This document shows, in pieces, positions 11,829-63,990 of a stretch of 64,000 nucleotides of DNA. The translations under genes were made by a program, and so were the position numbers. The notes under the pieces were generated by a model, which saw only the letters and a list, made by a program, of their open reading frames with translations, searched no databases and had not been told where the DNA came from. Positions within the stretch are counted from its first letter, which is position 1. Every line of letters starts with the position of its first letter. The DNA is from Clostridia bacterium (GTDB lineage Bacteria > Bacillota > Clostridia > TANB77 > CAG-465): NCBI GenBank assembly GCA_017536445.1, contig JAFXHJ010000012.1, positions 2,348-66,347 of the forward strand. Direction: 5' to 3'.

Positions 11829-11835
11829 AATATAT

Positions 11836-17908: not shown

Positions 17909-18020
17909 TTGGAAACATCCTTTCAAAATATAATGATACCTATATTATACCACTTTTGGGTATGTTATGTCAACGTGCAAAAGTTTTTTAAAAAATTTTA
18001 ATTTTTTTAAGAAATTCTAT

Positions 18021-18905: not shown

Positions 18906-19106
18906 ATGGAATATCAAGTAGTTTATGCACAAGGCGGCGAATTTTACAAAGTTGCCGAAGAGCTCGAGAAAAAGGTCAACAAGCTTCTTAAGGAAGGATG
19001 GGCCCTTCAAGGTGGTGTTACTCAATCAATAACAAAATACGAGTGGCATTTTATGTCTCAAGCAATGGTTAAAATGTCAGCCCGCAATGAGATACGTCAA
19101 CTTTAA
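18906..19106 (+). CDS. DUF4177-like small protein (paralog)
   Basis: 66 aa beginning MEYQVVYAQ...LLKEGWALQG. RBS AAGGAG. Confidence 0.55.
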   Translation: MEYQVVYAQGGEFYKVAEELEKKVNKLLKEGWALQGGVTQSITKYEWHFMSQAMVKMSARNEIRQL

Positions 19107-19122
19107 TCAAGGAGAGATACAA

Positions 19123-19731
19123 ATGACAGAACCTAAAAACTCAATCATTTGCCCAGTATGTGGCAAAACCGCTAAGCGGTTACCCATTCATGTAAATCCA
19201 CTTTACAGATGTGATGAATGTGGTTTTCTTTCAAGCGACGAAAACGTTGTAGACATCTCGTACAAAGATCATGTGTCCGCTCCACTTTCCAATCTTTATC
19301 CCCATAAATTTGTACTTTATGGATTCTATCCTACAAGTAATATTTCCGAGGAACAAATTACGATTCCTTCTATGGAATCTTTTTTGCAGGGTCTTAAGAT
19401 TAAAGACGCTACTTTACAAAATATCTTTATGACAAGATATTCTGCTATGGATGCATGTAAAATGTCTGCAACCTTAAACGACTGGAAAGAAACACAGACG
19501 CTTTGGTTTAACGGAGAACCTTACAACAGATACAGTGATGAATACACCGACCTCATTACAAAAGCCTACGATGCACTCTTTGAAACAAATGTTATTTTCA
19601 GAGAAATCGTACTTCCTAAGTTCAAGGGCAAAATCTTGATTCACACAATTGGCAAAGATTCTGAATCCGATACAGTTCTTACCGAAGCAGAATTCAGACA
19701 CCAGCTTAACAGACTTATGAAAAGGCTGTAA
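19123..19731 (+). CDS. hypothetical protein with N-terminal CxxC...CxxC zinc ribbon
   Basis: CPVCGK...CDECG motif. RBS AAGGAGAG. Probably one operon with the DUF4177 pair. Terminator hairpin at 19738-19770 (AACAAGCAGTAGTT-AAAACTACTGCTTGTT). Confidence 0.55.
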   Translation: MTEPKNSIICPVCGKTAKRLPIHVNPLYRCDECGFLSSDENVVDISYKDHVSAPLSNLYPHKFVLYGFYPTSNISEEQITIPSMESFLQGLKIKDATLQNIFMTRYSAMDACKMSATLNDWKETQTLWFNGEPYNRYSDEYTDLITKAYDALFETNVIFREIVLPKFKGKILIHTIGKDSESDTVLTEAEFRHQLNRLMKRL

Positions 19732-19781: not shown

Positions 19782-20891
19782 TTATTTAATTATACTAAAA
19801 TCCGTTGTTGTCCCTATTTTAGCAGGAATATCCGCTTTTAAACATATTACTGGACGTACACAACGATAATAATTTGTTGTGTCATTAGCAGTTATTTTAC
19901 CGTAATTTTCCACATACATAATGTAGCCATCCGCCGAAGATGGTGCCGCTAACCATATATCCGAATTAGCATCAGCACACCAAATATACAAATCATCTTC
20001 AGTAGATATATCTATAGTTACTGTATTATTTATATAATACCCTTTCTCTTTATATTCACTTAATACTAATTCATCAGCATATATTTCATATTTTTTAGTA
20101 GCTTCTCTTTTGGCATTCCAACTTGCAACAAACATCTCAGCTGATGGTGTACCTATAGCGCCGACCACATAATCACCATATTTTTCTGTGTTTTTATAAG
20201 CATCCCAAAGCGTTTCATCAAAAAAATAAGCCACATATTTGCTCATTCTAGTTAATGAATAATCCTTCCAATTCGCAAGCCATAATGATGAGTTTTGTAT
20301 TGTTGCAAACTCTGTTAATTCCGTACCATATTTCCAATGAATTCTTTCGACTGTTCCCTTACTACCATCCGGCAATGTTATATCTGTCGATAATGTAGTT
20401 GCGCAAGATTTTTCTTTAAATTTTTCAGGCACCTTACCATAACTTAACGCTTCGCTCGCAATTAAGTATACATATTCATTTGTATGATAAAATAATTTCC
20501 ATTTTGTTATTCCGTTTGCCACATAATCTACCGTTTTACCATAGTCTTCCGCACTTTCTATTAAGTCTCCCAATCCAGAAAACGTGGTTACATTTACTCC
20601 TTTGTCTGAAACTATAATATTCCATTCATCTTCCTTTATTCCTTGCTCTTCTAATTTGTCTATTACTTCATCTATTAGCACTTGTCCTCTTAAATTATTT
20701 GTATATGCATCCGCCCATATCAAAGATGCTAAATTTTGTACTTGGCTTTGATTTGCTAAATCCACTACAAGGCTAGCTCTATTTATTATTCCTGTATTAG
20801 ATAATGTTATTACTACACTTGCTGCTAGTATTATCATAACTATTATTGTTATTACTAATACAATTAATGATACTCCTTGTTTTCTTTTCAT
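19782..20891 (-). CDS. DUF1566 (Lcl C-terminal domain)-like surface protein with non-canonical prepilin-like N-terminus (paralog 1)
   Basis: N-terminus MKRKQG-VSLIVLVITIIVMIILAASVVITLSNTG. C-terminus YIWCADANSDIWLAAPS...YRCVRPVICLK, the DUF1566 hallmark. Own promoter CTTGCA-17-TAGTAT after the rpoD terminator. Confidence 0.6.
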   Translation of the reverse strand: MKRKQGVSLIVLVITIIVMIILAASVVITLSNTGIINRASLVVDLANQSQVQNLASLIWADAYTNNLRGQVLIDEVIDKLEEQGIKEDEWNIIVSDKGVNVTTFSGLGDLIESAEDYGKTVDYVANGITKWKLFYHTNEYVYLIASEALSYGKVPEKFKEKSCATTLSTDITLPDGSKGTVERIHWKYGTELTEFATIQNSSLWLANWKDYSLTRMSKYVAYFFDETLWDAYKNTEKYGDYVVGAIGTPSAEMFVASWNAKREATKKYEIYADELVLSEYKEKGYYINNTVTIDISTEDDLYIWCADANSDIWLAAPSSADGYIMYVENYGKITANDTTNYYRCVRPVICLKADIPAKIGTTTDFSIIK

Positions 20892-38333: not shown

Positions 38334-38470
38334 ACTACACCTCTTTATATTAACTATGTTATATCACAAGGATACTACTTTAACAAGAAAATTATATTTT
38401 ATTTATAAAAAGCTAGACATTTTTAACTAAAAATGTTAAAATGAACATATGTTCTTTAGGAGGTATTTAT

Positions 38471-39170
38471 ATGAACACTAATTCGAAGCATAACGATACC
38501 GAATTATCTTCAATCAATCTAAAAAATCTTAGTCTTAATCGTTTAAATCAATCTTTTATTAAGCATATATCTGCAGGCGAATATAAAAAATCTGATTTGT
38601 TGGCATATTGGATAAATGATTTTGCCAATTACCATGATAATGAAGAATGTTTTAATTCCAATGAACTAAAACGATATAAAAGAGGCGATATAATAAAAGT
38701 CGACTTGGGATTTAACATCCGGAAACGAACTTGGCGGCCTACACTATTGCATTGTGATAAGTAAACACGATAAACCATCATTTGGAACACTAAATGTAAT
38801 TCCATTAACATCTATAAAAGAGGATAAAACTTATTTCAATGATACTGTTAATCTTGGTAGCGAATTATATGATTTATTATATTCTAAATTAAAAAAACAT
38901 ATTTCTAAATCTTCTTTATATACTCCCTTAAACACTTCGTTTTATCAAAATAATTTAGTTAGCGAAAATTCAAAAATGATACTAAAACTCCAACATGAAA
39001 TAAACAAAATGAAAAAAGGCAGCATAGCACTTTTAAATCAAATTACAACTATTAGTAAACAACGTATTTTTAACCCCAAATCTTCAAATGATTTATTATC
39101 TGGCATACATATTTCTAATTCAAGTTTAAATCTAATTGATACAAAACTCATCGAACTTTTCACAAAATAA
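38471..39170 (+). pseudogene. long PemK/MazF-family toxin-like gene disrupted by a -1 frameshift near 38715
   Basis: Frame 1 ends ...KRGDIIKVDLGFNI(RKRTWRPTLLHCDK*). The +1 frame continues GNELGGLHYCIVISKHDKPSFGTLNVIPLTS, which is the PemK/MazF core. Promoter TAGACA-17-TAAAAT and RBS AGGAGG. Confidence 0.55.
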
Positions 39171-39305: not shown

Positions 39306-39938
39306 TTATTTGCCAATTATAATAGCACCACTCCATTTAAATGAGTCTATCCAATAACGTGTGCCTATAAAATTAACCTTTTCTTCTACTAAGCCATAAT
39401 CTTTATGTTCATACTTAATATTAAATGTTAAAAATATTTTATTTTCGTCCCAGGTAGCACTTTGTGTACCTCGCAATGAATTAATAGAAATAATATTTTC
39501 TTTTTCTTCTCCCATTCCATTTAAGAAAACTTCAGTTAAATCTTTATTGTATTTATCAAAAATCCAAGTAGCATATCCTCCACCACAAGCGCCAGCATCC
39601 CAATCCACAGGTCTAGTATAAATATATCCAACTAAAGTTCCGCATACTATTAATAATACACAAACGCTAATTATAATACCTATTTTTATTTTTTGTCTTT
39701 TAGACAATTTTTGTTTAGACTTACTCGTATCTACTGTTTCTTGTTTACCAGATGCAATGTATTCTACTGTGGAATTTAACAGTTCTGCTAATTTAATAAT
39801 ATTATTAGTATCCGGATTTGATATATCTTGTTCCCACTTTGATACTGCTTGTCGACTTACTTCTAATTGTTCTGCAAGATACTCTTGAGAATAGTTAAGG
39901 TTTCTTCTTAAATCTCTAATTCTGCTTCCAATGGTCAT
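39306..39938 (-). CDS. membrane-bound XRE-family HTH transcriptional regulator
   Basis: N-terminal HTH LRRNLNYSQEYLAEQLEVSRQAVSKWE, one TM and a C-terminal extracytoplasmic domain. Confidence 0.7.
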   Translation of the reverse strand: MTIGSRIRDLRRNLNYSQEYLAEQLEVSRQAVSKWEQDISNPDTNNIIKLAELLNSTVEYIASGKQETVDTSKSKQKLSKRQKIKIGIIISVCVLLIVCGTLVGYIYTRPVDWDAGACGGGYATWIFDKYNKDLTEVFLNGMGEEKENIISINSLRGTQSATWDENKIFLTFNIKYEHKDYGLVEEKVNFIGTRYWIDSFKWSGAIIIGK

Positions 39939-44509: not shown

Positions 44510-46237
44510 TTACTCGGTTTTAGTTACAACTTCTCCCTCAGTTGCAACAGGAGCTTCAGAAGCATCAGGCTTTCTAAGAGCGCCAAGTCCAGCGCCGATT
44601 GCCTTAGAAAGGTCCTTTACTTCGTCGGTGACAGGGCGGCCGTTAAGAGCCTCATTCTGAACGTTGAGAGCCTTCATAAGCACGGGGAACTGTGCAAGAG
44701 TATCAACAAGGACGTTACCAGTACCACCAGTTCCGCCAACGCCGGGGATGTTTCCACCGCCGATATTGATAAACTCAGCGTTCTGACCAACGTTGGCCAT
44801 AATTTCAGCCTGAGCGATCGCAATCTTGATTTGAGCCTCGGTCTGGATCTTGAGTCTTTCAATCTCGAAGTTAACCTTGCCGTTAGAAGCTCTTGCTTCT
44901 GCAAGTTCTCTTTCACCTTCAGCCTGAGCATGCAAGGTAGCCTTAAGACCTTCTGCCTCTGCAAGCTTTTGAGCTTTGATACCTTCAGCTTCTGCAAGTT
45001 TCTGCGCCTTGATACCTTCTGCTTCAGCGATAGCCTTTGCCTGAGCAACAGCAGCCGCAGCTTCACCTTCTGCACGCGTCTTGTGTGCCTCTGCTTCTGC
45101 AGCCTTCTTAACTGCTTCTGCATCGTTGCTTGCAACCTTTACACGTGCTTCTGCTTTGGTGGTTTCTACGTCAGCTTCACCCTGTGCAGCCTTACGCGCA
45201 GCATCTGCCTCACGTTCTGCAACCTTGATTTTAGCTTCCGCCTCAATAGATTTTACGCTTGCCTCCGCCTCTGCGTTAACACGCTTAGTTTCCTTCTCAG
45301 CTTCAGCACGGGTAATCATAACCTCACGTTCCTTCTGAGCTGCAAGGTTGGCTTGCTCCTGACGAGTAATTTCAACAGCACCCTTACGTTCTTCGACTTC
45401 CTTCTGACGGATGGTCATCTGAAGTTCCTTCGCAATCTCTGCGTCAGCGTTTGCGGTATCTGTTTCGATCTTGAACTGCGCAAGTTTCATATCTGTTTCC
45501 TTACGCTTTTCCTTCTCGGTCTGCTCTGCGGTCATACGGGCAATTTCTGCATCCTGCTTAGCCTGAGCTTCGGCAATTTCTGCTTCCTTCTTGGCAACAG
45601 CCTGCTTCTGGCGGGTAATTTTGTCTACCTCAGCACGCTTGATGTCTGCCGCCTGTTGCTTGTCTGCTGCATCGATGGCGGCAATGTTGTTGAAGTAATC
45701 GTTGTTGTCCGTAATATCCTGGATATTAAGAGAAACCAGTTCCAGACCCATATTGTCAAGCTCATCGCTTACAGCGGTCTGAATAAGCTTCTTATATTCT
45801 TCTTTCTCACGAAGGATCTGCTCAGGAGTCATTGCAGCAACAACGTCACGAACTGCACCCATAAGGGTAAGTTTAACGTCATCGATAATACCCTGATTAC
45901 CTCTTTCTTTGAAAGAAATAATCGCTGTACGAAGTTTTACAGGATCAGACACACAAGGTCTAATTTGAGCAGTCCAGTCACAAACGACCGGTACAGCCGT
46001 AGATGTTTTGATTTCATCCGCATCCGCAGTAACGGTCAGCATACAAAGATCAAAGTAGCTTGCCTTCCGGAAAACCGGGATAACGAAAGCACCACCAGAA
46101 ACCTTGATAACAGGTTCCTTACCACCGGTGATAATAAGCGCCTTATCTACATCGGCAACCTTGTAGATGCACGCAAGGAAAATGATGAGTGCAACAACGA
46201 GGCCAACGCCAATGCCTATAGGGATAAGAATTTCCAT
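44510..46237 (-). CDS. floT: flotillin-like SPFH/band-7 protein (FloT/YuaG-like), compositionally foreign
   Basis: N-terminal membrane hairpin, SPFH domain and a long Ala/Glu/Lys coiled coil with EA repeats (AEAEGIKAQKLAEAEGIKAQKLAEAEGLKA). GC is far above the local background, with AAG and GCN codon preference. Confidence 0.8.
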   Translation of the reverse strand: MEILIPIGIGVGLVVALIIFLACIYKVADVDKALIITGGKEPVIKVSGGAFVIPVFRKASYFDLCMLTVTADADEIKTSTAVPVVCDWTAQIRPCVSDPVKLRTAIISFKERGNQGIIDDVKLTLMGAVRDVVAAMTPEQILREKEEYKKLIQTAVSDELDNMGLELVSLNIQDITDNNDYFNNIAAIDAADKQQAADIKRAEVDKITRQKQAVAKKEAEIAEAQAKQDAEIARMTAEQTEKEKRKETDMKLAQFKIETDTANADAEIAKELQMTIRQKEVEERKGAVEITRQEQANLAAQKEREVMITRAEAEKETKRVNAEAEASVKSIEAEAKIKVAEREADAARKAAQGEADVETTKAEARVKVASNDAEAVKKAAEAEAHKTRAEGEAAAAVAQAKAIAEAEGIKAQKLAEAEGIKAQKLAEAEGLKATLHAQAEGERELAEARASNGKVNFEIERLKIQTEAQIKIAIAQAEIMANVGQNAEFINIGGGNIPGVGGTGGTGNVLVDTLAQFPVLMKALNVQNEALNGRPVTDEVKDLSKAIGAGLGALRKPDASEAPVATEGEVVTKTE

Positions 46238-48453: not shown

Positions 48454-49818
48454 TTATTTCTTAAGTTCCAATACACAAACACATTCTATATGGCTTGTCC
48501 ACGGAAACATATCTACCATCTTTATTTCTTTTATATCATATCTAGTAGATAACAATTTTAAGTCCCTTGCAAGTGTAGCTGAATTACAACTTACATATCC
48601 TATTTTAGTAGGAGCAAGTTCTAATATTAATTCTATACCTTGTTCATCTAGTCCTTTTCTTGGGGGATCTACTACTATGTAATCAAAAAACTTACCTTCG
48701 TCTTTTAATTTTAATGTTTCTTTTGTTGCATCTCCTAATACATGTATTACATTTGTTACATTGTTTATTCTGGCATTTTCTTTTGCAGCTTCTACTGCAG
48801 ATTCTACTATTTCTACTGCATATATATCTTTTACAGCATCAGATAAATATATTCCTATACTTCCAACTCCGCTATATAGCTCTAATACTGTTTTGTCTTT
48901 TTCAAGTTCCATCTCAGTTTTTAGAAGATTGTACAATACTTCTGCTTGAAGTGTATTTACTTGGAAGAAGGAATCTGCTGTAATCTTAAATGTATAATTA
49001 CCTATTTTATCTGTTATATATTCATCTCCAAATATACAAACATTTTCATCAGATAATATTACATTTGTATTTTTAGCATTTATATTTAGTACAAAAGATT
49101 TAATATTTGGATATTCTTTTGTAATTTCTTTTACTACCTTATCCATTCTTGAATCTTTTGCGAAACACCTATCTGTTACAACTAATACACACATAACTTC
49201 ATCTGTATGTATACCACGTCTAACCATTATATTACGTATATCTCCAGTTAGTGTTTTTTCATTGTATCCTACAAACTTTTCTTTGTCTAAAAGTTCAAAC
49301 AATCTTCTTGCAACTTTATGTGTTGTTTCATCTTGTATGTAACATTCTTTGTTGTTTACTAAATCGTGGCTACCTTTTTCGTACATACCAACATAGTTTC
49401 TACCATTACGGTTTATCATAGGATATTGAACTTTATTTCTATAATAATATGGTTTATCCATACCATATATATCCTTAACTAACGTTTCATCTAACCCTTG
49501 TTTTTTTATGTTGTTAATTACTTTTTCTTTCTTTATTTCTAATGTATTTTTGTAGTCTGTATGCATAGCTTCACAACCACCACATCTAGAATAATATTCA
49601 CATACTGGTTTAGCTCTTCTTTTAGAAGCTTCTTTTATTTCTTTTAAGTCTCCAAGTGCATAATTCTTATTAAGTTTTATTATCTTAGCTGTTACTTGTT
49701 CATCTTTAAGTGTTCCTGGTACAAATACTGTAAGTCCATCATCAGATTTAGCAATACCTTCAAAATTCATGCCAACATCTTTTATTTTGAAATTATACTG
49801 TTTGTTCAGCTCCAACAT
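48454..49818 (-). CDS. rlmD: 23S rRNA (uracil-C5)-methyltransferase RlmD/RumA
   Basis: TRAM domain, Fe-S Cys cluster, SAM MTase motifs and a DPPRKG catalytic motif. Confidence 0.8.
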   Translation of the reverse strand: MLELNKQYNFKIKDVGMNFEGIAKSDDGLTVFVPGTLKDEQVTAKIIKLNKNYALGDLKEIKEASKRRAKPVCEYYSRCGGCEAMHTDYKNTLEIKKEKVINNIKKQGLDETLVKDIYGMDKPYYYRNKVQYPMINRNGRNYVGMYEKGSHDLVNNKECYIQDETTHKVARRLFELLDKEKFVGYNEKTLTGDIRNIMVRRGIHTDEVMCVLVVTDRCFAKDSRMDKVVKEITKEYPNIKSFVLNINAKNTNVILSDENVCIFGDEYITDKIGNYTFKITADSFFQVNTLQAEVLYNLLKTEMELEKDKTVLELYSGVGSIGIYLSDAVKDIYAVEIVESAVEAAKENARINNVTNVIHVLGDATKETLKLKDEGKFFDYIVVDPPRKGLDEQGIELILELAPTKIGYVSCNSATLARDLKLLSTRYDIKEIKMVDMFPWTSHIECVCVLELKK

Positions 49819-50935
49819 TCTTTTTCCCTTCTTTTTTAGCTTTACTCTTTAATTTTGTTTCTTCTACAAAGTTATCTTTCATTATCTTAAATAGTATTGT
49901 TATTGTTTTTATAATCATATCCTTAGTTTCTTCATCTAATTCTTTATATGATCCAAGTAATATTTTACCTTTAGCTATTGGATTTTTCATAAGTTCCTTA
50001 AATGATTCTATATTTGTTGTATTTATTATTTCAAATACAACTTCAATTACCTTTTCACGTTTCTTAGGATCGGTTTGTTCCAACCAATCTTTTAAGCTCT
50101 TATCTATAAACTTACTTCCGTTTGTTACTTCTTTAAGTTTTATAAATTTATTGCCTTCTATTTCCCAGCTGTATAAATCATGTTGCATAACGCCAAATTC
50201 ATTACTTTTTACTACTGTATATCTACCTTCGTTATATAACATTCTTCCAAAGATTGAATCTTGTGGAATATACGTTTCAACTTTATTTATCATCTGCTTA
50301 TATTCTTTTGATTCAATAATTTCTTTATTAAATCCTGGGCCTTCATTGTTATATACAGTTACAATTCTATCTTGCACTTCTTTGCTAGCATATATAGCAG
50401 AATACACCGCTACATTTCCACCTTTAGAATGTCCGCCTACTAATATCTTTTTATCTGGATATTCTTTAGCAACTTGTTCTAAATATTTCACGCCTTCTAT
50501 TTGTGATGCAACGTGAGTCATAAATGTCATATTAAGGTCTTCTTTCCAACCCACTACTGTACTATCTGTACCTCTATATGACACATAGATTGTACCATCT
50601 GGCAGTATAATAGTCACTGCGGCATATTGTATGTCCTTTTCCTTTATAATCTTATGATCGTATTTAGTTACTAACATTTCTCCAAATCTTTTTGAGCTTC
50701 CCATTGCAGGAATTAAGTATACATCATCCGGCCAAAGGATATTTAATGTCTTTACATCAAGTTTAGAATATCTTTCACCAATTTCCTTAAATGTAACTGT
50801 TTCATTATCTTCCATTAAAGATTCAAAAGGGAAATATGACGCTCTAGAAAGTATTAATCCATCTACTTCATTAAAGCCATCTATACTTACGCTTAAATCG
50901 CCTCTCCATTTTATATAATCTATTACATTTGCCAT
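49793..50935 (-). CDS. DUF2974 / lipase-class-3-like alpha/beta hydrolase
   Basis: GHSKGG nucleophile elbow, 380 aa. Confidence 0.6.
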   Translation of the reverse strand: MANVIDYIKWRGDLSVSIDGFNEVDGLILSRASYFPFESLMEDNETVTFKEIGERYSKLDVKTLNILWPDDVYLIPAMGSSKRFGEMLVTKYDHKIIKEKDIQYAAVTIILPDGTIYVSYRGTDSTVVGWKEDLNMTFMTHVASQIEGVKYLEQVAKEYPDKKILVGGHSKGGNVAVYSAIYASKEVQDRIVTVYNNEGPGFNKEIIESKEYKQMINKVETYIPQDSIFGRMLYNEGRYTVVKSNEFGVMQHDLYSWEIEGNKFIKLKEVTNGSKFIDKSLKDWLEQTDPKKREKVIEVVFEIINTTNIESFKELMKNPIAKGKILLGSYKELDEETKDMIIKTITILFKIMKDNFVEETKLKSKAKKEGKKNVGAEQTV

Positions 50936-51005: not shown

Positions 51006-51105
51006 ATACTTTTTGATTCCGTCAGAAGTGAGCATTACCGTTCTTCCGAACAAGAGATTGTGTGTAGAATTCACCTCCGTCTTGTATATTCTTACGTAAT
51101 TGCTC
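51006..51105. repeat. direct repeat copy A: decayed duplicate of the 3' end of the beta-CASP gene
   Basis: About 92 % identical to 52452-52550. In frame it still encodes SNYVRIYKTEVNSTHNLLFGRTVMLTSDGIKKY. Confidence 0.85.
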
Positions 51106-51175
51106 AATGCGAACACCCTAAAACAAAAATATCAATTGAAATAGTAAACGCCTTTACTATTTCAATTGATGTTAA

Positions 51176-52231
51176 CTACTTTATAACCCACTGTCCATTT
51201 CGTTTTCCGTTTTTTCTTTCAATTAATCCTTTTTCTTTCATCTGAGACATATGTGATTTTACAGTTCTTAAAGATTTATTAATTTCTTTTGCTATTTCAT
51301 CTTGTGTTATTGTTGGATTATTTTTTAATATATTTATAATTGCTTGTTCTTCTAAAGTGCAATTTTTGCACTTTGAATCGTTATTGTTTGCACTTTTTTC
51401 ATTATCTATATGCGTATATCTATTTTTCAATTCATAATTTGTATTGGTTAATAGATTATAAAAGAACTTTTCTAAAAACGATGTGTCTTCAAATATATTT
51501 TTTTCAAAGTTTTTGTAATTTGCTCTAACTAACGAATTTCTAAAATACCAAGAGTTTTCAGCAAAAACATCATCGTTGATCTTAAACCCAAAAGTCCTTA
51601 AATATTTTATTATAAACACAGCTGTTGTTCTTGTATTACCTTCACAAAACGGATGAACTTGCCAAATATTTGAGGTAAATCTACATAGGTGTTTTATAGA
51701 TTCATCTATGCTTAGGTCTTTATATGAAAATGCTCTTTCTTGTTCAAAATCATAGTTTAAAGCATCTATAATTGTTTCATAAGAAGAGTATATTACTGTA
51801 TCTTTATTTAATACCCATTCTTTTTTAGTAAAGTTATAATCTCTAAATACTCCCGCATTTTTATATATTCCATTAAATAATCTTTTGTGAATGTTTAATA
51901 ATTCTGCTACTGAGAAATTAAATGTATTTTCACTTAATATCTCTGTAATTCTAACCGCTACTTTATCTGCTTCTTCGTTTTCTCTTGTTTCTAATTTTCT
52001 ATTATCTATTTCTTTATAATATTCATCTATCCTATCCTTAACTTCTTCAATATCTATATTCCCTTCAATATGTTCTTTTGCTGTTTCTATTAAATATTTT
52101 GATGGTTTTAAGCCATCAACATCTTGAAGTCCTATAGCCGTTTCCCATACCTTAGTTTTTTCTACTTTATTTGGTTCACCTTGTTTTATATATTCTATTA
52201 ATTCCAAATTCCAATCTTTTTTGTTGTTCAT
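51176..52231 (-). CDS. Fic/DOC-family protein with C-terminal winged-HTH
   Basis: Fic motif HPFCEGNTRTT and a C-terminal DeoR-like wHTH (ITQDEIAKEINKSLRTVKSHMSQMKEKGLIER). RBS GGAGG before MNNKKDW. Confidence 0.8.
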   Translation of the reverse strand: MNNKKDWNLELIEYIKQGEPNKVEKTKVWETAIGLQDVDGLKPSKYLIETAKEHIEGNIDIEEVKDRIDEYYKEIDNRKLETRENEEADKVAVRITEILSENTFNFSVAELLNIHKRLFNGIYKNAGVFRDYNFTKKEWVLNKDTVIYSSYETIIDALNYDFEQERAFSYKDLSIDESIKHLCRFTSNIWQVHPFCEGNTRTTAVFIIKYLRTFGFKINDDVFAENSWYFRNSLVRANYKNFEKNIFEDTSFLEKFFYNLLTNTNYELKNRYTHIDNEKSANNNDSKCKNCTLEEQAIINILKNNPTITQDEIAKEINKSLRTVKSHMSQMKEKGLIERKNGKRNGQWVIK

Positions 52232-52291
52232 TATATACATCCTCCACACATATTATTATAGCATTTTTAATACACAAAGTCAATTTCAAAG

Positions 52292-52316
52292 TGCAAAAAT
52301 TGCACTTTGAAATATA
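52292..52316. promoter_or_regulatory. palindromic operator-like site in the fic upstream region
   Basis: TCAAAGTGCAA-AAA-TTGCACTTTGA: a perfect 11-bp inverted repeat. A half-site is repeated 25 nt further, and a related palindrome lies at 51357-51382 inside the fic CDS. Confidence 0.5.
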
Positions 52317-52444
52317 TGAAATTGCACTTTGAATATTAATTTATATATAATAACTTTTCTCTTCCAAAATCATGCCTACTCACTTAAATTTACGCAAAAA
52401 AGGGCTAACACCTTTAGGTGTTAGCCCTAATTTGAGACTTAAGC

Positions 52445-53959
52445 TTAATAATACTTTTTGATTCCATCAGAAGTGAGCATTACCGTTCTTCCGAACAAGA
52501 GGTTGTGTGTGGAGTTTACATCCGTCTTGTATCTTCTTACATAATTGCTCTTTGCTTCTACAGTGCCGTGGTTGAAAAGAAGTGCTTTTGCGTTTTCAAA
52601 CCTTGCAAGGAACTTATCCAAGTCTTCGGGAGGGATGTGCGAAGAGTAATAACCGAAGTTATACATCTTACACATGAGTTTTACTTTCTCACCCATATAC
52701 TCGATTTCAGTTCCACGAGGCAGATTTACGATGTTCCTTACATTCTCCGGGATATATGCTACAAAGATAAGCGTTACATTTTTGTTTGCAAGCATCTTTG
52801 CACCATACGTTACAAACGAACCTTGATAAAGTCTCGGCGATGTGCAGATAATCATCTTAGGTCCTTGCTCGGCTGCAACCAACTCGCGGTCGGTCTTGTC
52901 GATAATCCTGAAGTTTTCCGGAACATAGTCTGTGCCGTAAAGCTTTACATACTTGGAATGGCATTTGATACCAAAGGTAGAATCGAAATAGATTTTGAAA
53001 TCCTTGATTCCTTCAAATACATTTTCCTTTTGCATGCTTACAAGGTCTGCACAAACTTTCTGAGGTCTTTCAAGAGAGTTGGACATATACATTACTGTTC
53101 CACGCTTCTTGCGAACGTTTTCCAGAATCTTGATGTGTCTTTGTCTCTCTGCTTCATCATCGCGAGGCCCATCAGATGCTCCGTAGGTAGCTTCAGATAC
53201 CACAAAGTCAATCTTTTTACAAACCTCGTCAGGAATGATTGTAACTCCGCCGGTGACAGGATTTGTCATTCCCAGGTCTCCAGTGAACAAGAAGTTCAAC
53301 TCTTCACTTTCATCGAAAGCCCTTACGTGTACAAGAACTGCACCACCAATATGAGCATTCGGATAGAATGTGATTTCCAAACCTTCCGCGGGAGAAAACG
53401 TTTCAAAAGGTGCTACAGTGTTAACTCTATCTAAGCAGACATCAATGTCTTTTCTTTCAAAAATTAAAACCGGCATATGAGTTTCAGTTTTGGGCTTATC
53501 CTTGGTATATTCCCTACGCTGTTTATCTCTCTTGCCACGACCTTTCGAGTCCAGCTTTGCCTTACGCACTGCCTTCTTCTCCGCTTTGTACTTCTTAAGT
53601 GCAACGTCATATTCTTCCTGAAGTCTGTCACTTGTCTCGGACAAGATACAAGGAAGGAGTTGCTTAGTTTCCTCGGTAGTATAAATTCTACCCATAAATC
53701 CTTTCTTTACCAGGTACGGGAACCGACCAACATGGTCAGTGTGTACGTGGGTTGCGATTGCAAACGCGATGTTGCTTGGTGTAAAAACGAACTTTTCAGC
53801 ATTCCTTTCTAAATGTTCTTTTTCCTGGAACAAACCGCAATCGATTACAAACGAAAGTTCCCGACCATCCGGCCAGACAACCTTCACATGGTTGCAGCTA
53901 CCAGTGACTTCCTCAGAGTACGATGTTACATAAGCTTTGATTTTTAGTCTACTGTCCAT
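52445..53959 (-). CDS. beta-CASP family metallo-beta-lactamase-fold nuclease (CPSF/RNase J-like), compositionally foreign
   Basis: MBL motifs VIDCG, ATHVHTDHVG, NAHIGGA and FTGDLG. beta-CASP motif A VVSEATYG and C LFNHG. GC is clearly above background. Confidence 0.65.
   Translation of the reverse strand: MDSRLKIKAYVTSYSEEVTGSCNHVKVVWPDGRELSFVIDCGLFQEKEHLERNAEKFVFTPSNIAFAIATHVHTDHVGRFPYLVKKGFMGRIYTTEETKQLLPCILSETSDRLQEEYDVALKKYKAEKKAVRKAKLDSKGRGKRDKQRREYTKDKPKTETHMPVLIFERKDIDVCLDRVNTVAPFETFSPAEGLEITFYPNAHIGGAVLVHVRAFDESEELNFLFTGDLGMTNPVTGGVTIIPDEVCKKIDFVVSEATYGASDGPRDDEAERQRHIKILENVRKKRGTVMYMSNSLERPQKVCADLVSMQKENVFEGIKDFKIYFDSTFGIKCHSKYVKLYGTDYVPENFRIIDKTDRELVAAEQGPKMIICTSPRLYQGSFVTYGAKMLANKNVTLIFVAYIPENVRNIVNLPRGTEIEYMGEKVKLMCKMYNFGYYSSHIPPEDLDKFLARFENAKALLFNHGTVEAKSNYVRRYKTDVNSTHNLLFGRTVMLTSDGIKKYY
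52452..52550. repeat. direct repeat copy B (functional 3' end of the beta-CASP gene)
   Basis: See copy A. Confidence 0.85.
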
Positions 53960-54058
53960 ATACTATTCTCCTTTAATTATATTAGAGTAATTTTATATAC
54001 TACTGCCTTTATTTTAACATCCACAAAAACATATTGCAAGGAAATTTCACATATTTTG

Positions 54059-54439
54059 TCACATATTTCTAAAAAACTTTAAGCACTCTAAAAAGCTAGC
54101 GTTCCCACGCAAACCGCAGCTAATAATTACGGCATTTTTAATCTCATCTAAAACCTTTTTATCTACCCTTCCTATTCTTTCCTTTAACCTACTTTTATCT
54201 AACGTTCTAATTTGTTCTACAAGAATAATAGAGTCCTTCTCCAAACCATATTTATTTTTACTTATGCTCACATGCGTTGGCAATTTCTTTTTAACTCTAG
54301 AGGTTATAGGTAAAACTATTACTGTATTACTGTATTTGTTGCCTACATTGTTTTGCACAACAACAACCGGCCTAATTCCGGATTGTTCGCTTCCTACTAC
54401 CTCACCTAAATCTGCATAATATATATCTCCACGTTTCAT
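54059..54439 (-). CDS. mazF: MazF/EndoA-family endoribonuclease toxin, no cognate antitoxin gene evident
   Basis: MKRGDIYYADLGEVVGSEQSGIRPVVVVQNNVGNKYSNTVIVLPITS..VEQIRTLDK, very similar to B. subtilis EndoA. Own TATAAT -10. No MazE/NdoAI-like ORF on either side. Confidence 0.75.
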   Translation of the reverse strand: MKRGDIYYADLGEVVGSEQSGIRPVVVVQNNVGNKYSNTVIVLPITSRVKKKLPTHVSISKNKYGLEKDSIILVEQIRTLDKSRLKERIGRVDKKVLDEIKNAVIISCGLRGNASFLECLKFFRNM

Positions 54440-54502: not shown

Positions 54503-54595
54503 AATTATTATGTTAATTATTCTTTTAATAAATTGTGTGCGCTTACGCTGGTGGTACTTGCCCCCACTTGCGCACGCCTTGCATTAGTGCCTCAG
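54503..54595 (-). other. conserved GC-rich structured 3' UTR element (copy 1)
   Basis: GTGCGCAAGTGG...CCACCAGCGTAAGCGCAC imperfect hairpin. About 90 % identical to 63059-63129, with the loop diverged and the stems conserved. Confidence 0.5.
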
Positions 54596-55621
54596 TTATT
54601 TTGTTAAGCTAAAATCATAGTCTCCTGTTCCCGCTGTTGCTGGGATACTAGATTTTAGACAAACTACGGGACGCACGCCATAAGGACCGTCGTAGAGGCT
54701 AAGGCCCACACTGTCACTTCCCGCAAGCACAACATAGTCATAGTAGTCAGCAGACGGAGACGCCAACCAATAGTAATAACTTGACGGTACATATAATCCA
54801 TCACTTGTTACTGATACATAACAGGTATTATTTATCTTGTATCCATATGTGTCTGTTGTTAGTGTCATTGTTGGCGTATAGCCTTTCGAATTCCATCCTG
54901 CTACTAATAGTTCTAATGTAGGGCTGCCTATTGCTCCTACTACATTTGTTCCATATGTCGTTGTATTTGCAAAGTTTGAATAATCTTTTATTAATTGTGC
55001 TACTGCTTGTGAGTTATATGATGTGCTTCCACTTACTGTATCTACTAATGTGTATTTATCTGCATCTCCTACTCTAAATTTTTCGTATAGTGATAGCTCA
55101 TCACTTGTTAGACTTGCTACTGTTGTTCCTTTATCTAATGTTGTATCTCCTATTGATTCTGCTGCTATTAGATATACATAGTCGCTATTATGATAATATA
55201 TTTGCCAATCGCTATATGTTGTTCCATCTACTGTTACAGAGTAATCTACTTTGTCTCCATAGTTAGCTGCTGTTATTAACGAACCTAATCCTGTTCCTGA
55301 TGCGGAGTTTTTATTTGTAACGCTTACTCCTGTATCTGTTACTGTTATATTCCAGTCATCTGTTGTTACTCCTCGTTCTGCTAATTTTGTTGTTACTTCA
55401 TCTATTAGTTCTTGACCTCTTAGATTATCCATATAGGCATCTGCCCACACCAATGCAGCTAAGTCTTGTACTTGTGATTCATTTGTTAAGTCTACTGCTT
55501 CATTTGCTCTGTTTATTACACCAGTATTACTTAGTGTTATTACTACACTTGCCGCTAATATTATCATTACTATTATTGTAATGACTAAAACTATTAAGGA
55601 TATACCTTGTTTCTTTTGCAT
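54596..55621 (-). CDS. DUF1566-like surface protein with prepilin-like N-terminus (paralog 2)
   Basis: MQKKQG-ISLIVLVITIIVMIILAASVVITLSNTG. C-terminus YYWLASPSADYYDYVVLAGS...YGVRPVVCLK. RBS AAGGAGG. Confidence 0.6.
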   Translation of the reverse strand: MQKKQGISLIVLVITIIVMIILAASVVITLSNTGVINRANEAVDLTNESQVQDLAALVWADAYMDNLRGQELIDEVTTKLAERGVTTDDWNITVTDTGVSVTNKNSASGTGLGSLITAANYGDKVDYSVTVDGTTYSDWQIYYHNSDYVYLIAAESIGDTTLDKGTTVASLTSDELSLYEKFRVGDADKYTLVDTVSGSTSYNSQAVAQLIKDYSNFANTTTYGTNVVGAIGSPTLELLVAGWNSKGYTPTMTLTTDTYGYKINNTCYVSVTSDGLYVPSSYYYWLASPSADYYDYVVLAGSDSVGLSLYDGPYGVRPVVCLKSSIPATAGTGDYDFSLTK

Positions 55622-55639
55622 ATTTTTCTCCTCCTTTTT

Positions 55640-55695
55640 GCATGCAAAAAAGCAAAGCAGCACATACCTTTAAGTATGTGTTACTTTGCTAGTTT
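55640..55695 (-). terminator. intrinsic terminator/attenuator between the XRE regulator and paralog 2
   Basis: AGCAAAG-uaac-ACAUAC-uuaaag-GUAUGU-gcug-CUUUGCU plus UUUUUU, ending about 25 nt before the paralog-2 RBS. Confidence 0.5.
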
Positions 55696-55858
55696 CTATT
55701 TTAATTTGAGGTGCAAAAAACGCCTCTAATGTTTGTTCATTAGAATTGATTGTGTGTGTATATGTAATCTTATAACTTTCAACGTTTTTCATCTTTTGTT
55801 TACCCCTTCTTTATGTATTTAATCTTATTATATATTTTATTTTTTGTAAATATTTTTC

Positions 55859-56533
55859 TTATTCTTTTATTATTTTGTCTATTAAAAAATATATAACTAC
55901 CATAATTAAAGATATTCCCATTCCAATATAGAATTCTGGAAAAGCAAATTCTATACTGTTTGCAAGGCTCATTTCTCCTGTTATGTTCATAATATGCCAA
56001 GTGAAAAATTTATATATTTCAGATGCTACAATTCCTATTACACCAACACCACCTAATATTTTGCCTATTATTTCTTTCTTAAACGGTAGCCATACACCTA
56101 GTAAAAATAATATTACAGATAATATCCCTATTGGATTTAATAAATTAATTAGTCCTGTTATTTCTTGTACACCTTTTAGCCCGCCATATTGATTCATTAA
56201 CATTGGTAGTAGGCTCATAAAGAATAATATGGTTAGTATTATTCTCTTGTTTTTTCTTTTTATATAGTTTGTGTAATCTAAAAGTGTTTTTGCAGATAAA
56301 TTAATTGATTTGTTTTTGCTAGTTATTTTTTCTCCTTTTAATAGTTCGTTAACTGTTATATTTAATTCTTCACATAGTATTTCAAATAACGAAACATCTG
56401 GCATTGTTTTTCCGTTTTCCCAACGACTTATTGATTTACTAGATACTCCTAATTTTTCTGCCATTTGTTCTTGTGTCATATTTTTATCTTTTCTTCTTTC
56501 TGCTATAAATCTTCCTATCTTTTCTTGATCCAT
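55859..56533 (-). CDS. membrane-bound XRE-family HTH regulator
   Basis: HTH MTQEQMAEKLGVSSKSISRWENGKT and four C-terminal TM helices. RBS AGAGGTGGA. Confidence 0.7.
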   Translation of the reverse strand: MDQEKIGRFIAERRKDKNMTQEQMAEKLGVSSKSISRWENGKTMPDVSLFEILCEELNITVNELLKGEKITSKNKSINLSAKTLLDYTNYIKRKNKRIILTILFFMSLLPMLMNQYGGLKGVQEITGLINLLNPIGILSVILFLLGVWLPFKKEIIGKILGGVGVIGIVASEIYKFFTWHIMNITGEMSLANSIEFAFPEFYIGMGISLIMVVIYFLIDKIIKE

Positions 56534-56629
56534 AATCCACCTCTTTCTAGTTTTTATTCTATAATATCTAACTAAAAAATAACAGGACACAAAGTGAGAA
56601 TTGACTAATTCTTCTATGTCCTGTTTGGT

Positions 56630-57706
56630 TTATTCTTCCCTCTTTAACATTTCATAATATTCATTTAGAATGTTTATTACACCTTCATATGTGTTTTCTT
56701 TGTTTATTCTATCTCTTGCAATACTACTATGTTTTAATCCTTTAAAATACCAAGCAATATGTTTACGCATTTTAGGTATTGCTACTTCTTCTCTTTCACG
56801 TAACACAGCTAAATCTAAATGTTCACGTATTACATTAAATCTTTCTTCTAAACTTGGTATATATTCTTTTCCTTCTATTATGCTTCTAAATATCCAAGGA
56901 TTTCCCATTGCTGCTCTACCTATCATAATTGCATCTACGCCAGTTTCAAACATCCTTTTAGCAGATTCTACATCTACAACATCACCATTTCCTACTACCG
57001 GAATAGATACGCTTTCTTTAACTTCCTTTATACCTTCTAAATCCGCTATACCTGTATAATACTGATCTCTTGTTCTACCATGAACTGTTAGCATGCTAAC
57101 TCCATATTTTTCACAAAGTTTAGCAACTTTAACAGCAGTCATTGTATCCTTGTTATATCCAAGTCTTGTTTTTATTGTAACTGGTTTAGTACTAGTTTCT
57201 GTAAGCGTCTTAATTATTTCTTCTACTTTGTCTAAGTCTTTTAGTAGTTCACTACCATCACCATTTTTTACTACCTTGGGTGCCGGACATCCCATATTAA
57301 AGTCTATAATATCTATATTCTTGTCTTCATTTAATCTTAACACTACTTGTTTTATAATATCCGGTTCACTACCAAATATTTGTATTACTTTAGGTTTTTC
57401 GTTTTCATACATATCCATTATTTTATGTGTCTTTTTATCTTGATATACAAGTCCACGAGTACTAACCATTTCTGTTGGAGAATATACCACGCCACCATAT
57501 TTGTTACAAATATATCTAAATGGTAAATCTGTAACTCCTGCCATTGGTGCTAAAAACACATTATGTTTTACAGGTATATTCCCAACTTTTATTTCCTTTA
57601 TATATTCTCTTAGTTCCAAACTAATTTCTCCTTTATGTTTGTTTTCTATTCTACAAATAAAGATTTTTGCCTTCTTCCGCTTATGCTTAAAAGAAGTCCT
57701 AAGCAA
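56630..57706 (-). CDS. dusB: tRNA-dihydrouridine synthase
   Basis: FLAPMAGVTDLPFR, TIM-barrel FMN site and catalytic Cys region. The true start is probably internal to the long ORF. Confidence 0.8.
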   Translation of the reverse strand: MLRTSFKHKRKKAKIFICRIENKHKGEISLELREYIKEIKVGNIPVKHNVFLAPMAGVTDLPFRYICNKYGGVVYSPTEMVSTRGLVYQDKKTHKIMDMYENEKPKVIQIFGSEPDIIKQVVLRLNEDKNIDIIDFNMGCPAPKVVKNGDGSELLKDLDKVEEIIKTLTETSTKPVTIKTRLGYNKDTMTAVKVAKLCEKYGVSMLTVHGRTRDQYYTGIADLEGIKEVKESVSIPVVGNGDVVDVESAKRMFETGVDAIMIGRAAMGNPWIFRSIIEGKEYIPSLEERFNVIREHLDLAVLREREEVAIPKMRKHIAWYFKGLKHSSIARDRINKENTYEGVINILNEYYEMLKREE

Positions 57707-58752
57707 GTAAAGTTTGTAAGAAGACTACTTCCACCATAGCTTACAAATGGTAATGGTATACCTGTAATAGGCATAAGACCAATCGTCATACCAATATTTT
57801 CTACAAAGTGGAAAAAGTACATTCCAAATACTCCAATTGCTATTAAACTTCCAAATCTGTCTTTAGAAGTTTCTGCTATCTTTAATATTCTAAGTAGCAT
57901 AAATACGTATGCTATAACTATTAAAAAGGATGCAACAAATCCAAATTCTTCAGATATTACTGAGTATATAAAGTCTGAAGATTTAACCGGCAAATATCCC
58001 CATTGAGTTTGTGTTCCTTTACCTAAACCTGTCCCAAATAACATTCCAGAGCCAACCGCTATTTTAGATTGTATTGCGTTATATCCTGCTCCTAGTGGTT
58101 CTCTTTCTGGATCTAAGAACACAAGTATTCTTTGTTGTTGGTAATCATTTAACACAAAGAAATATACAATTGGTACAAGTATTATTACTAGTAATATTAA
58201 TGCTATAACATATTTATAACTTAACCCAGACTTAAACATCATAAAGAATGTTATACTAGCAAAAACTATAGCTGTACCTAAGTCTGGTTGTAACATTATT
58301 AGTATTACTGGAATTGCAAACATAGCTCCTATTACTAATATGTTTTGCCATTTGTTAACTGCTTCTTTACCTTTACCCATATATTCCATATATTTTGCTA
58401 CAGCAAGTATATATGCTATTTTCATAAACTCAGATGGTTGAAGTAAAAAGCCGCCAAGATTAAACCAGCTGGATGCTCCGTTAATCTCTGGCATAAAGAG
58501 TACTACAACCAGGGCTACTAAAAATATTGGATAAGCCACAATTCCTATGCTTCCTGTTAAATGGTAATCTAGCATCCATGCAGCAAACATAACTGCTAAA
58601 GATATACCTACCCATACTATTTGTTTTACCCACTCATCGCTAGAGCTTGTACTATTCATCCCTGCACTATATATTCCGATTACTCCAATTACTACTAGGA
58701 CTATTACAAGTCCTAGTAATATATAATCGGTATTCCTAAATAAATTTTTCAT
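57646..58752 (-). CDS. rodA: FtsW/RodA/SpoVE-family peptidoglycan glycosyltransferase
   Basis: 10-TM SEDS protein, 368 aa. Confidence 0.8.
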   Translation of the reverse strand: MKNLFRNTDYILLGLVIVLVVIGVIGIYSAGMNSTSSSDEWVKQIVWVGISLAVMFAAWMLDYHLTGSIGIVAYPIFLVALVVVLFMPEINGASSWFNLGGFLLQPSEFMKIAYILAVAKYMEYMGKGKEAVNKWQNILVIGAMFAIPVILIMLQPDLGTAIVFASITFFMMFKSGLSYKYVIALILLVIILVPIVYFFVLNDYQQQRILVFLDPEREPLGAGYNAIQSKIAVGSGMLFGTGLGKGTQTQWGYLPVKSSDFIYSVISEEFGFVASFLIVIAYVFMLLRILKIAETSKDRFGSLIAIGVFGMYFFHFVENIGMTIGLMPITGIPLPFVSYGGSSLLTNFTCLGLLLSISGRRQKSLFVE

Positions 58753-60277: not shown

Positions 60278-60676
60278 TTACATTTTGTTTTCCTTAAGGA
60301 CATCCGCAAGATTGATTTTACCAGAACCTGCTCCCACAAGTGTTACTTGTGTTTCTGCTCCTTGGCCAATCCAGGTAATCATCTCAATAGTAGTCTCATC
60401 ATCCAAGTTGATAACTACCATAAGCCTTACAAAACCATTTTCACTGCCTTCGACTTCAATTCCATGTTTCTCACAGTATCCGTGAACAAGATAAAAGAAC
60501 TTAGAAATTTTATATATTCTTTCTTGTTCTTCTTCAGATGCTGCTCTGTTTTCTGTGGCATTGGGATTGTCTGTAAAAAACTTGTGCTCCTTTACATACC
60601 TCTTAAGCCAAGAAATATACTCAGGCTTAAGTGTAGAATAGAGACTTTCTAAATAACCTTCTACGAAACTCTTCAT
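60278..60676 (-). CDS. hypothetical protein
   Basis: 132-aa ORF. Confidence 0.45.
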   Translation of the reverse strand: MKSFVEGYLESLYSTLKPEYISWLKRYVKEHKFFTDNPNATENRAASEEEQERIYKISKFFYLVHGYCEKHGIEVEGSENGFVRLMVVINLDDETTIEMITWIGQGAETQVTLVGAGSGKINLADVLKENKM

Positions 60677-63129: not shown

Positions 63130-63990
63130 TTATTTTGTTAAGCTAAAATCATATTCTCCTGTTCCTGCTATTGCTGGGATACTAGATTTTAGACAAACTA
63201 CGGGACGCACACCAATAGCACAGTTGCAGGAGTCATCGCCCACATTGCCAGAGCCCGCAACCATAACACTGCTACCGTGGCTAGCAGACGGAGACGCCAA
63301 CCAATAGTAATCTGACGGTACATATAATCCATCACTTGTTACGTATACATAGTAGGCATTATTTATCTTGTATCCATCTGTGTCTGTTGTTAGTTCCATT
63401 GTTGGTGTATAGCCCTTTGCATTCCATCCTGCTGCTAATAACTCTAATGTTGGTCCTCCTATTGCTCCTACTACATTTGTTCCATATGTTGTTGTATTTG
63501 CAAAGTTTGCATAGTCTTTTATTAATTGTGCTACTGCTTGACAGTTATGCATTGTATAATTATTTTCATCTGTAGATGTATCTATTAATGTATACTTATC
63601 TGCATTACCTACTCTAAATTTTTCATATAATGCTAATTCATCGCTAGTTAAACTTGCTACTGTTGTTCCTTTATCCATTGAAACTTCTTCAACATAACTT
63701 TCAGATATTAAATATACATAGTCGCTATTATGATAATATATTTGCCAATCATCATATGTTGTTCCATCTACCGTTACAGTATAATCTACTTTGTCTCCAT
63801 AGTTAGCTTTAGAGATTAATGAACCTAGTCCAGCCCCTGATTGTGTGTTGTCTCCACCGCCATTGTTTTTATTTTCTATTGTAACTCCTGTATCTGTTAC
63901 CGTTATATCCCATTTGTCTGCCGTTACTCCTTGTTTACCTAATTCTTCTGTTACTTTATCTATTAGTTCTTGGCCTCTTAGATTATCCAT
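63130..63990 (-). CDS. DUF1566-like surface protein (paralog 3), N-terminus beyond window end
   Basis: C-terminus GVRPVVCLKSSIPAIAGTGEYDFSLTK. Long identical nucleotide blocks shared with paralog 2. Confidence 0.6.
   Translation of the reverse strand: MDNLRGQELIDKVTEELGKQGVTADKWDITVTDTGVTIENKNNGGGDNTQSGAGLGSLISKANYGDKVDYTVTVDGTTYDDWQIYYHNSDYVYLISESYVEEVSMDKGTTVASLTSDELALYEKFRVGNADKYTLIDTSTDENNYTMHNCQAVAQLIKDYANFANTTTYGTNVVGAIGGPTLELLAAGWNAKGYTPTMELTTDTDGYKINNAYYVYVTSDGLYVPSDYYWLASPSASHGSSVMVAGSGNVGDDSCNCAIGVRPVVCLKSSIPAIAGTGEYDFSLTK

Follow-up and report, generated by a model that had tools for sequence, protein, structure and literature searches.

MazE-less mazF, a CPSF73-like beta-CASP gene and a Fic gene in an uncultured gut Clostridia bacterium: probably two old neighbours and a recent insertion rather than one defence system

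We analysed a stretch of 64,000 nucleotides (64 kb, hereafter the window) from an uncultured Clostridia bacterium of the animal gut (~31% GC), in which three consecutive genes lie on the minus strand: mazF (54059-54439), for a 126-residue MazF of the EndoA/NdoA type; a gene for a 504-residue metallo-beta-lactamase (MBL) protein of the beta-CASP family (52445-53959); and a gene for a 351-residue Fic protein with a C-terminal winged helix-turn-helix (wHTH) domain (51176-52231). An earlier note on this DNA had grouped them as a candidate toxin/defence cluster, and its coordinates and family assignments were confirmed (by Pfam and PDB matches for MazF; by profiles, AlphaFold and Foldseek for the beta-CASP protein; by Pfam, PADLOC and translation for Fic). 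Identical proteins are encoded on two metagenome contigs, and the same arrangement, Fic insert included, was present in two independent assemblies. Our analyses indicate that mazF and the beta-CASP gene are probably old, vertically inherited neighbours next to which Fic is a recent, self-contained insertion, the three not forming one defence system.

Sequence scans place a promoter-like site ahead of each of the three genes, and terminator-like hairpins 3' of the beta-CASP gene, 3' of Fic and before mazF, all on the minus strand. The 156-nt spacer upstream of mazF consists only of the terminator hairpin of the preceding gene (54500-54474), a TATAAT box (54459-54454) and a ribosome-binding site (RBS), and the TATAAT-RBS block is conserved in two related loci (L014 and L016; loci of relatives are numbered in this way throughout), in agreement with the earlier assignment of a separate promoter to mazF, which we also predict. 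The 99-nt spacer between mazF and the beta-CASP gene holds a promoter-like site, TTGCAA-17-TAAAAT with an upstream TG (54011-54039), whose two hexamers are conserved as TTGnAA-17-TGnTAAAAT in 8/8 aligned relatives; a terminator scan of this spacer found none. The beta-CASP gene is followed by an intrinsic terminator (52401-52428; 12-bp stem with 7 GC pairs and a T-run) that is the same hairpin in L012, L015 and L016. Fic has a strong predicted promoter, TG-extended, of the form TTGACT-17-TATAAT (11/12; 52255-52313 together with the palindrome abutting it), and a terminator-like hairpin with an 18-bp stem and a T-run (51131-51170).

The mazF product matches the Pfam family PemK_toxin (PF02452; E 4.7e-37, 127 bits against a cutoff of 23.1) and thus has the MazF/PemK fold of type II MazEF toxins. 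Among solved structures it is closest to S. aureus MazF (3e-38) and B. subtilis EndoA (3e-36, over residues 1-110), and it is 55-67% identical to ordinary Firmicute MazFs. The residues aligned with catalytic R25 and T48 of B. subtilis EndoA are kept. By homology with EndoA and S. aureus MazF, cleavage at U^ACAU-like sites would be expected. Comparison with relatives gave a dN/dS (ratio of nonsynonymous to synonymous divergence) of 0.03-0.11, indicating strong purifying selection. The protein ends in a 16-residue C-terminal tail (RGNASFLECLKFFRNM), and a tail of 15-20 residues is conserved in all MazFs of the clade; it is amphipathic, of the form GLRGxxxF[E/D][E/D][Y/C][I/L]K..., whereas MazE-linked MazFs lack such a tail (median 3 residues, and 5 in other MazE-less MazFs). 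The AlphaFold model of MazF (pLDDT 45) is uninformative on the tail. Separately, synonymous divergence (dS) of mazF is far above that of its flanks (0.30 versus 0.09-0.24 against the closest relative, and 1.4-2.8 versus 0.6-0.8 in the 92%-identity group), with dN/dS low throughout, which suggests allele exchange by recombination at a hotspot.

No MazE gene adjoins mazF, as had been noticed earlier. On the mazF strand there is no open reading frame (ORF) of 20 or more residues in the upstream or the downstream spacer, and a MazE hidden Markov model (HMM), built from 26 MazE genes adjoining other MazFs and detecting B. subtilis MazE (3e-23) and S. aureus MazE (2e-13) as positive controls, had no match in the 64 kb searched of this genome or in ~19 related loci (7-17 kb per relative, ~300 kb of clade sequence). 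Most related loci have no room for MazE, since a YdcC-like gene ends 8-57 nt before mazF, where the window has a terminator and a separate putative promoter instead. The adjacent, co-transcribed antitoxin of ribbon-helix-helix (RHH) or AbrB type that marks a type II MazEF locus is therefore missing here. Antitoxin-less EndoA-type MazFs are common: MazE lies next to only 28 of 80 other MazF loci (53-67% identity), and at least 46 of the 74 with sufficient upstream DNA have no adjacent MazE. Together with an S. aureus mazE nonsense mutant that grew like the wild type (PMC9077811), these loci weaken the earlier expectation of lethality for an orphan MazF, which is not safe to assume.

Other candidate antitoxins near mazF fared no better. 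A small protein or RNA beside the gene, for which the earlier note had proposed a search, was rejected because neither an ORF nor an Rfam RNA was found and there are no tandem repeats nearby, and the high dS of mazF argues against an overlapping conserved antisense element. The tail shows no similarity to the MazE HMM, and the idea of a MazE-like peptide was rejected. The YdcC-like protein is an unlikely antitoxin in that its N-terminal hydrophobic segment reads as a membrane anchor and that the lineage of the window lacks its gene yet still conserves MazF. In our literature search, neither a MazF without MazE in Clostridia nor a pairing of MazF with beta-CASP turned up.

Two further features were recorded in this context. 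Directly after the stop codon of the pilin-like gene that precedes mazF lies a GC-rich, hairpin-forming 44-nt segment (54535-54578, minus) present only in the window and absent from the corresponding spacers of L012, L014 and L016; one of its frames has a weak RHH-like stretch (KRTQFIKRII, E 1.8) that is probably a chance match. A second PemK/MazF-like gene (38441-39170, plus), convergent with an XRE-HTH gene (39306-39938), is split by a frameshift and is either a pseudogene or an assembly error: the ORF at 38441-38764 ends in ...YKRGDIIKVDLGFN... and that at 38754-39170 continues with ...NVIPLTS... (PemK, E 6.5e-4).

In the 504-residue ORF, Pfam detects weak Lactamase_B, Beta-Casp and RMMBL domains, and profile comparison gives strong matches to beta-CASP proteins of the CPSF73/TTHA0252/Cas14 type (against PDB: Cas14 9e-43, aCPSF1 2e-40, TTHA0252 3e-37, with CPSF73 and INTS11 also matched). 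The best Foldseek match of its AlphaFold model (pLDDT 89.5) is TTHA0252 (TM 0.84), TTHA0252 and CPSF73 together spanning TM 0.7-0.84. All 20 homologues compared, the most distant at 34% identity, share residues D40, H71-x-H73-x-D75-H76, H203, D228, E256, H441 and H464, and the signature of the nuclease family is complete: MBL motifs 1-4, including HxHxDH, and beta-CASP motifs A (E256), B (H441) and C (H464). Motif C is the His of RNA-type enzymes, DNA-specific ones having V. The fold and all catalytic motifs are common to this protein and TTHA0252, CPSF73 and aCPSF1 (FttA), but identity to them is only ~21%, MBL motifs 2 and 3 are separated by a family-specific, Lys/Arg-rich helical insertion of ~70 residues (about 96-165), there are no KH domains like those of aCPSF1, and the family is restricted to uncultured gut Clostridia and has atypical GC-rich codons. 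Cas14 of type VII CRISPR-Cas is the best PDB profile match (NCBIfam 7e-36), but only the nuclease core aligns and the score of 124 bits falls far below the 800-bit cutoff for membership; Rfam and tandem-repeat scans of the window found no CRISPR-like array, and no Cas protein was seen among the proteins scanned, which were part of the window's ORFs with no systematic cas search. Nor is it an RNase J: RNase J1/J2 belong to the same superfamily and similar chemistry is expected, yet the match is marginal (E 2.5e-4) and confined to residues 38-109, in the MBL motif region, rather than spanning the full length with the C-terminal dimerisation domain of RNase J.

Scanning one genome for each GTDB species, we found relatives of the beta-CASP protein in 483 species genomes, all of uncultured Clostridia, 12 of them in the 504-residue subfamily; a distant subfamily (~30% identity, 68 loci) occurs among unrelated housekeeping genes. 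The family is one of uncharacterised bacterial CPSF73/TTHA0252-like RNases conserved in hundreds of gut species. Judged by its homologues, the protein is most likely a Zn-dependent RNase of the TTHA0252/CPSF73 type with a housekeeping role in RNA processing or decay. A conserved chromosomal gene of this kind largely removes the grounds for regarding it as accessory, the housekeeping role itself being presumptive.

The composition of the beta-CASP gene is anomalous, as had been pointed out, but the foreign origin then proposed for it finds no support. Its GC content is 0.42 and its GC at third codon positions (GC3) 0.43, against 0.15-0.22 (about 0.18) in neighbouring genes, and ATA is used for none of its 28 Ile codons, compared to about 70-85% in host genes. 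GC3 is likewise raised in 12/12 species-level relatives (0.27-0.46 versus 0.16-0.25), and the beta-CASP gene is the highest-GC3 ORF in 9/14 loci of its own subfamily and 30/64 of the distant one. Being raised across the family, GC3 marks a lasting trait of this gene and does not point to recent transfer. Recent horizontal transfer was also rejected because the identity of beta-CASP to the window tracks that of rlmCD at six depths (beta-CASP/rlmCD 99/96, 92/90, 77/73, 58/65, 57/61 and 42/54%) and its dS (0.09 and 0.75-0.78) matches that of the flanks (0.10-0.26 and 0.42-0.79).

Three other accounts of this codon usage also failed. High-expression codon bias does not fit, given that the codons of HU, pyruvate kinase and GroEL end in A/T as is typical of the host. 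Avoidance of MazF sites was not borne out: TACAT occurs 0 times against 2.1 expected in the window gene (P 0.08), and in 10 beta-CASP orthologues the z-scores were -1.6 for TACAT and -1.0 for ACA, only GATC and CTAG being depleted. An overlapping antisense gene is suggested by a 309-residue ORF (52505-53434), but this ORF is not conserved and stays open because the gene avoids TTA, CTA and TCA codons. The persistent GC-rich codon usage of the family is a real anomaly that none of these accounts explains. An anomaly of the same kind was seen in a Band_7/SPFH (flotillin-like) gene (44510-46237, minus) with GC 0.48, GC3 0.42, an extreme codon bias (ATA 1/47, CTT 25/33 and AAG 40/53), a fully open antisense frame and an internal 33-nt tandem repeat (44939-45025).

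Gene order around the pair is old. Upstream on the minus strand are rodA (57646-58752), dus for a tRNA-dihydrouridine synthase (56630-57706), which is the conserved upstream anchor, and a variable slot (54596-56590) occupied, according to Pfam, by an XRE-HTH membrane protein (55859-56590) and a pilin-like DUF6273 protein (54596-55663), its content differing among L012-L016; downstream lie a gene for an Mbeg1-like hydrolase (49793-50935), a lineage-specific insertion between beta-CASP and rlmCD, and the conserved downstream anchor, a TRAM/U5-methyltransferase gene of the RlmCD type (48454-49818). Relatives with 99% and 92% beta-CASP identity have Dus-[variable]-MazF-betaCASP-[variable]-Mbeg1-TRAM, and deeper ones (58, 57 and 42%) RodA-Dus-YdcC-like-MazF-betaCASP-TRAM. 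The MazF-betaCASP-TRAM order was seen directly in L008, L009/L021, L012-L016 and L018-L020, and at least 28 further beta-CASP/MazF pairs are indicated indirectly, by clusters whose longest contigs are equal in length. Among the 15 loci of the 504-residue subfamily, mazF and beta-CASP are adjacent in 11, and beta-CASP and rlmCD are together in all 15; the mazF-betaCASP junction is broken in the other 4 (L007, L017, L022 and L023). This conservation in related genomes largely runs counter to the accessory status at first attributed to mazF and the beta-CASP gene.

The ancestry of mazF can be read from other loci. B. subtilis has the order ydcC-alr-ndoAI-ndoA, and among metagenome MazF loci L169 has the canonical ydcC-alr-mazE-mazF and L164 and L167 alr-mazF without mazE; the locus analysed here looks, on these grounds, like the ancestral order minus alr and mazE. 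It shares its ydcC-linked ancestry with the EndoA/NdoA (YdcE)-EndoAI and S. aureus MazEF loci but has neither mazE nor alr.

The region from dus to rlmCD appears to be a hotspot where accessory and defence genes integrate. In L017 a reverse-transcriptase cassette (796-2770), read as a diversity-generating retroelement (DGR), separates mazF from beta-CASP, and downstream of rlmCD are Thoeris-like ThsA-Macro/ThsB-TIR genes in L009 (12120-13572) and Fic_N-Fic in L007 (11710-12849). Slots of this kind beside mazF and beta-CASP would lend the neighbourhood its defence flavour without the conserved genes belonging to any system. Within the window, pilin-like paralogues 41-73% identical to one another, with a prepilin-type N-terminus and a DUF6273-like C-terminus, occur at 19782-20891, 54596-55663 and 63130-63990 (all minus); a similar pilin-like C-terminal fragment adjoins the DGR-like cassette of L017 together with a small, possibly Avd-like ORF, and the paralogues may be DGR targets.

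Fic, as had been supposed, is a mobile, defence-flavoured accessory gene. The protein matches Pfam Fic (3.6e-12, 47 bits, cutoff 24) and HTH_24 (9e-12), and its likely start is ATG 52231 (351 residues, as in public assemblies) rather than GTG 52249. In PADLOC, a check proposed in the earlier note, it matches the defence candidate PDC-S72 over nearly its full length (E 2.1e-123, 410 bits; residues 18-340 on profile positions 7-324 of 377), MazF and beta-CASP giving no meaningful match. The Fic-plus-wHTH architecture and single-gene cassette are those of PDC-S72 and SoFic-type proteins. Compared with the canonical HxFx(D/E)GNGRxxR, the active-site motif HPFCEGNTRTTA has T for G and A for the last R, with the catalytic His and first Arg kept, and its activity may differ from AMPylation.

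Alignment with the 142-nt empty site of L012, L015 and L016, relatives at 99% and 92% identity that lack Fic, delimits an insert of 1374 nt (51006-52379, minus) between 'atttaagtga' and 'attttgt' of the ancestral beta-CASP/Mbeg1 spacer; L013 and L014 have a DUF3592 membrane protein at this position. Fic is the only gene of the insert, and the whole dus-rlmCD interval lacks a recombinase gene. Its distal end is a 105-nt direct repeat, 90% identical to the 3' end of the beta-CASP gene: copy B (52451-52555) is the true end of the coding sequence, with 0 differences from L016 and 1-2 from L012, and copy A (51006-51110) is a diverged, non-functional copy of the last 105 nt without the stop codon and terminator (89% to the beta-CASP C-terminus by tblastn). 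Since the distal copy is the diverged one and that in the intact gene is like the relatives', the repeat comes either from a diverged donor cassette or from an old, neutrally decayed duplication. What bounds Fic is an imperfect direct repeat, not the recombinase plus att-type repeats of an integrative element. A phage or plasmid origin was rejected, IMG/VR holding no relatives of beta-CASP and no close relatives of Fic, although one Fic homologue of 51% identity occurs on a phage-like contig.

A perfect palindrome, TTCAAAGTGCAA-N5-TTGCACTTTGAA, abuts the -35 box of the Fic promoter, with an additional half-site upstream, and Fic appears to be an autonomous, autoregulated single-gene defence candidate. 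The 24-nt promoter palindrome (52283-52313) has a second, perfect copy within the Fic coding sequence, at the linker between the Fic and wHTH domains (51354-51377, minus; 24 nt 100% complementary to 52285-52308), where it could serve as a further operator, fold as a hairpin in the RNA or be left over from a fusion of the two domains.

The reading that we hold probable starts from an old RNA-metabolism neighbourhood, rodA-dus-[variable slot]-mazF-betaCASP-[variable slot]-rlmCD. Its mazF would descend from the Firmicute ydcC-alr-mazE-mazF (endoA/ndoA) locus by loss of alr and mazE, and MazF would be an apparently active EndoA-type endoribonuclease with a lineage-specific tail. MazF would be tolerated without MazE in that an EndoA-type MazF at native levels is not lethal, the tail or a partner encoded elsewhere possibly helping. 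The beta-CASP gene would be transcribed from its own conserved putative promoter and inherited along with rlmCD. In the Fic insert, the wHTH domain would probably bind the promoter palindromes for autoregulation, and the relic of the beta-CASP 3' end suggests that Fic was copied or recombined from a locus where it already adjoined beta-CASP, a site-specific element not being evident for want of an integrase.

Several points weigh against this account. The codon usage of the beta-CASP gene is not that of an ordinary housekeeping gene such as those for HU, pyruvate kinase and GroEL, which are host-typical. The clade search covered partial genomes, and an antitoxin may be encoded in trans. That mazF and beta-CASP stay side by side in many lineages, without an intervening terminator, could point to a functional link rather than to synteny alone. 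The RNase activity of MazF and beta-CASP and the defence role of Fic are predictions from homology, and the insertion route of the Fic segment and the source of the 10%-diverged repeat are conjectural.

The alternative that survives best, though we consider it rather unlikely, would make MazF an ordinary type II toxin neutralised from a distant locus, either by a mazE that has moved or by an antitoxin that cross-reacts. The searched sequence amounts to the window and the short stretches from relatives given above, and the frameshifted PemK-like gene at 38441-39170 indicates that toxin-antitoxin-like genes exist elsewhere; MazEF homologues are reportedly capable of cross-neutralisation. What counts against it is the absence of any MazE-like ORF from the ~300 kb sampled in the clade and a loss of the adjacent antitoxin that is stable across lineages with saturated dS, MazF remaining under purifying selection. 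It also counts against this alternative that antitoxins of type II almost always adjoin their toxin gene and are co-transcribed with it.

A two-gene module of mazF and beta-CASP, in which the beta-CASP protein clears or processes the 5'-OH fragments made by MazF as an endo/exo pair, or neutralises MazF in place of MazE, seems to us improbable. Adjacency in 11 of the 15 subfamily loci, the additional pairs mentioned above and the lack of a terminator between the two genes in the window are in its favour, as is the failure to find MazE throughout the clade loci searched, and the occurrence of beta-CASP without MazF, but rarely of MazF without beta-CASP, in the subfamily fits antitoxin logic. The beta-CASP gene, however, has its own conserved promoter-like site, and its link to rlmCD is closer than that to mazF; a DGR-like insertion or rearrangements interrupt the junction in the four loci named above; in sister lineages the tail-bearing, MazE-less mazF is followed by a gene for an LRV/HEAT-repeat protein or by unknown ORFs, not by beta-CASP; beta-CASP is near none of the 80 other MazF loci; the distant beta-CASP subfamily never adjoins MazF; and beta-CASP genes show no avoidance of MazF sites.

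We likewise give little credence to a more speculative version in which MazF of these small-genome gut Clostridia has been domesticated into an antitoxin-free housekeeping endoribonuclease, its tail taking over in cis the inhibitory or regulatory part of MazE. MazF would then form an endo/exo pair for mRNA decay with beta-CASP, and a high GC content would shield the beta-CASP mRNA from AU-directed decay. That all three genes are one horizontally acquired defence or toxin island is very improbable indeed: common strand and adjacency, the PADLOC match of Fic, the atypical composition of beta-CASP and a neighbourhood that is an accessory-gene hotspot would suit it, but the nearest relatives keep mazF-betaCASP without Fic, the genes have separate promoter-like sites and beta-CASP and Fic their own terminator-like hairpins, beta-CASP and mazF are inherited vertically with flanking core genes and have no meaningful PADLOC match, and there is no integrase or transposase and no viral-contig relative. 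The multi-gene system once envisaged is thus not supported, as only mazF-betaCASP recurs in relatives.

With mazF and the beta-CASP gene probably old neighbours and Fic an insertion beside them, no new multi-gene defence system is shown, and the residual novelty lies in a lineage-wide MazE-less, tail-bearing MazF and in the GC-rich codons of a CPSF73-like RNase family. That MazE-less EndoA-type MazFs are common and under purifying selection in uncultured Clostridia bears on the debate over whether such proteins are toxins or ordinary RNases. Moreover, conserved RNA-metabolism genes here flank slots with defence candidates (Fic/PDC-S72, the DGR-like reverse transcriptase and the Thoeris-like genes), a caution against counting anchors as parts of a system.

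Some observations elsewhere in the window deserve mention. GC3 is 0.31-0.39 in four small genes, at 19087-19731 (plus), 3970-4380 (minus), 17450-17926 (minus) and 60278-60676 (minus). The first, which matches phage protein GP30.3 (PF08010, 2e-27) and adjoins a tRNA gene (18071-18144), lies at 17-20 kb in a stretch whose GC is higher and whose skew is reversed, possibly an integrated element of small size. Finally, a 134-residue ORF without a Pfam match (11912-12316) lies just upstream, on the same strand, of a full-length ornate large extremophilic (OLE) RNA (11304-11842, minus; 286 bits against a cutoff of 50), which is notable in a lineage of gut metagenome-assembled genomes.

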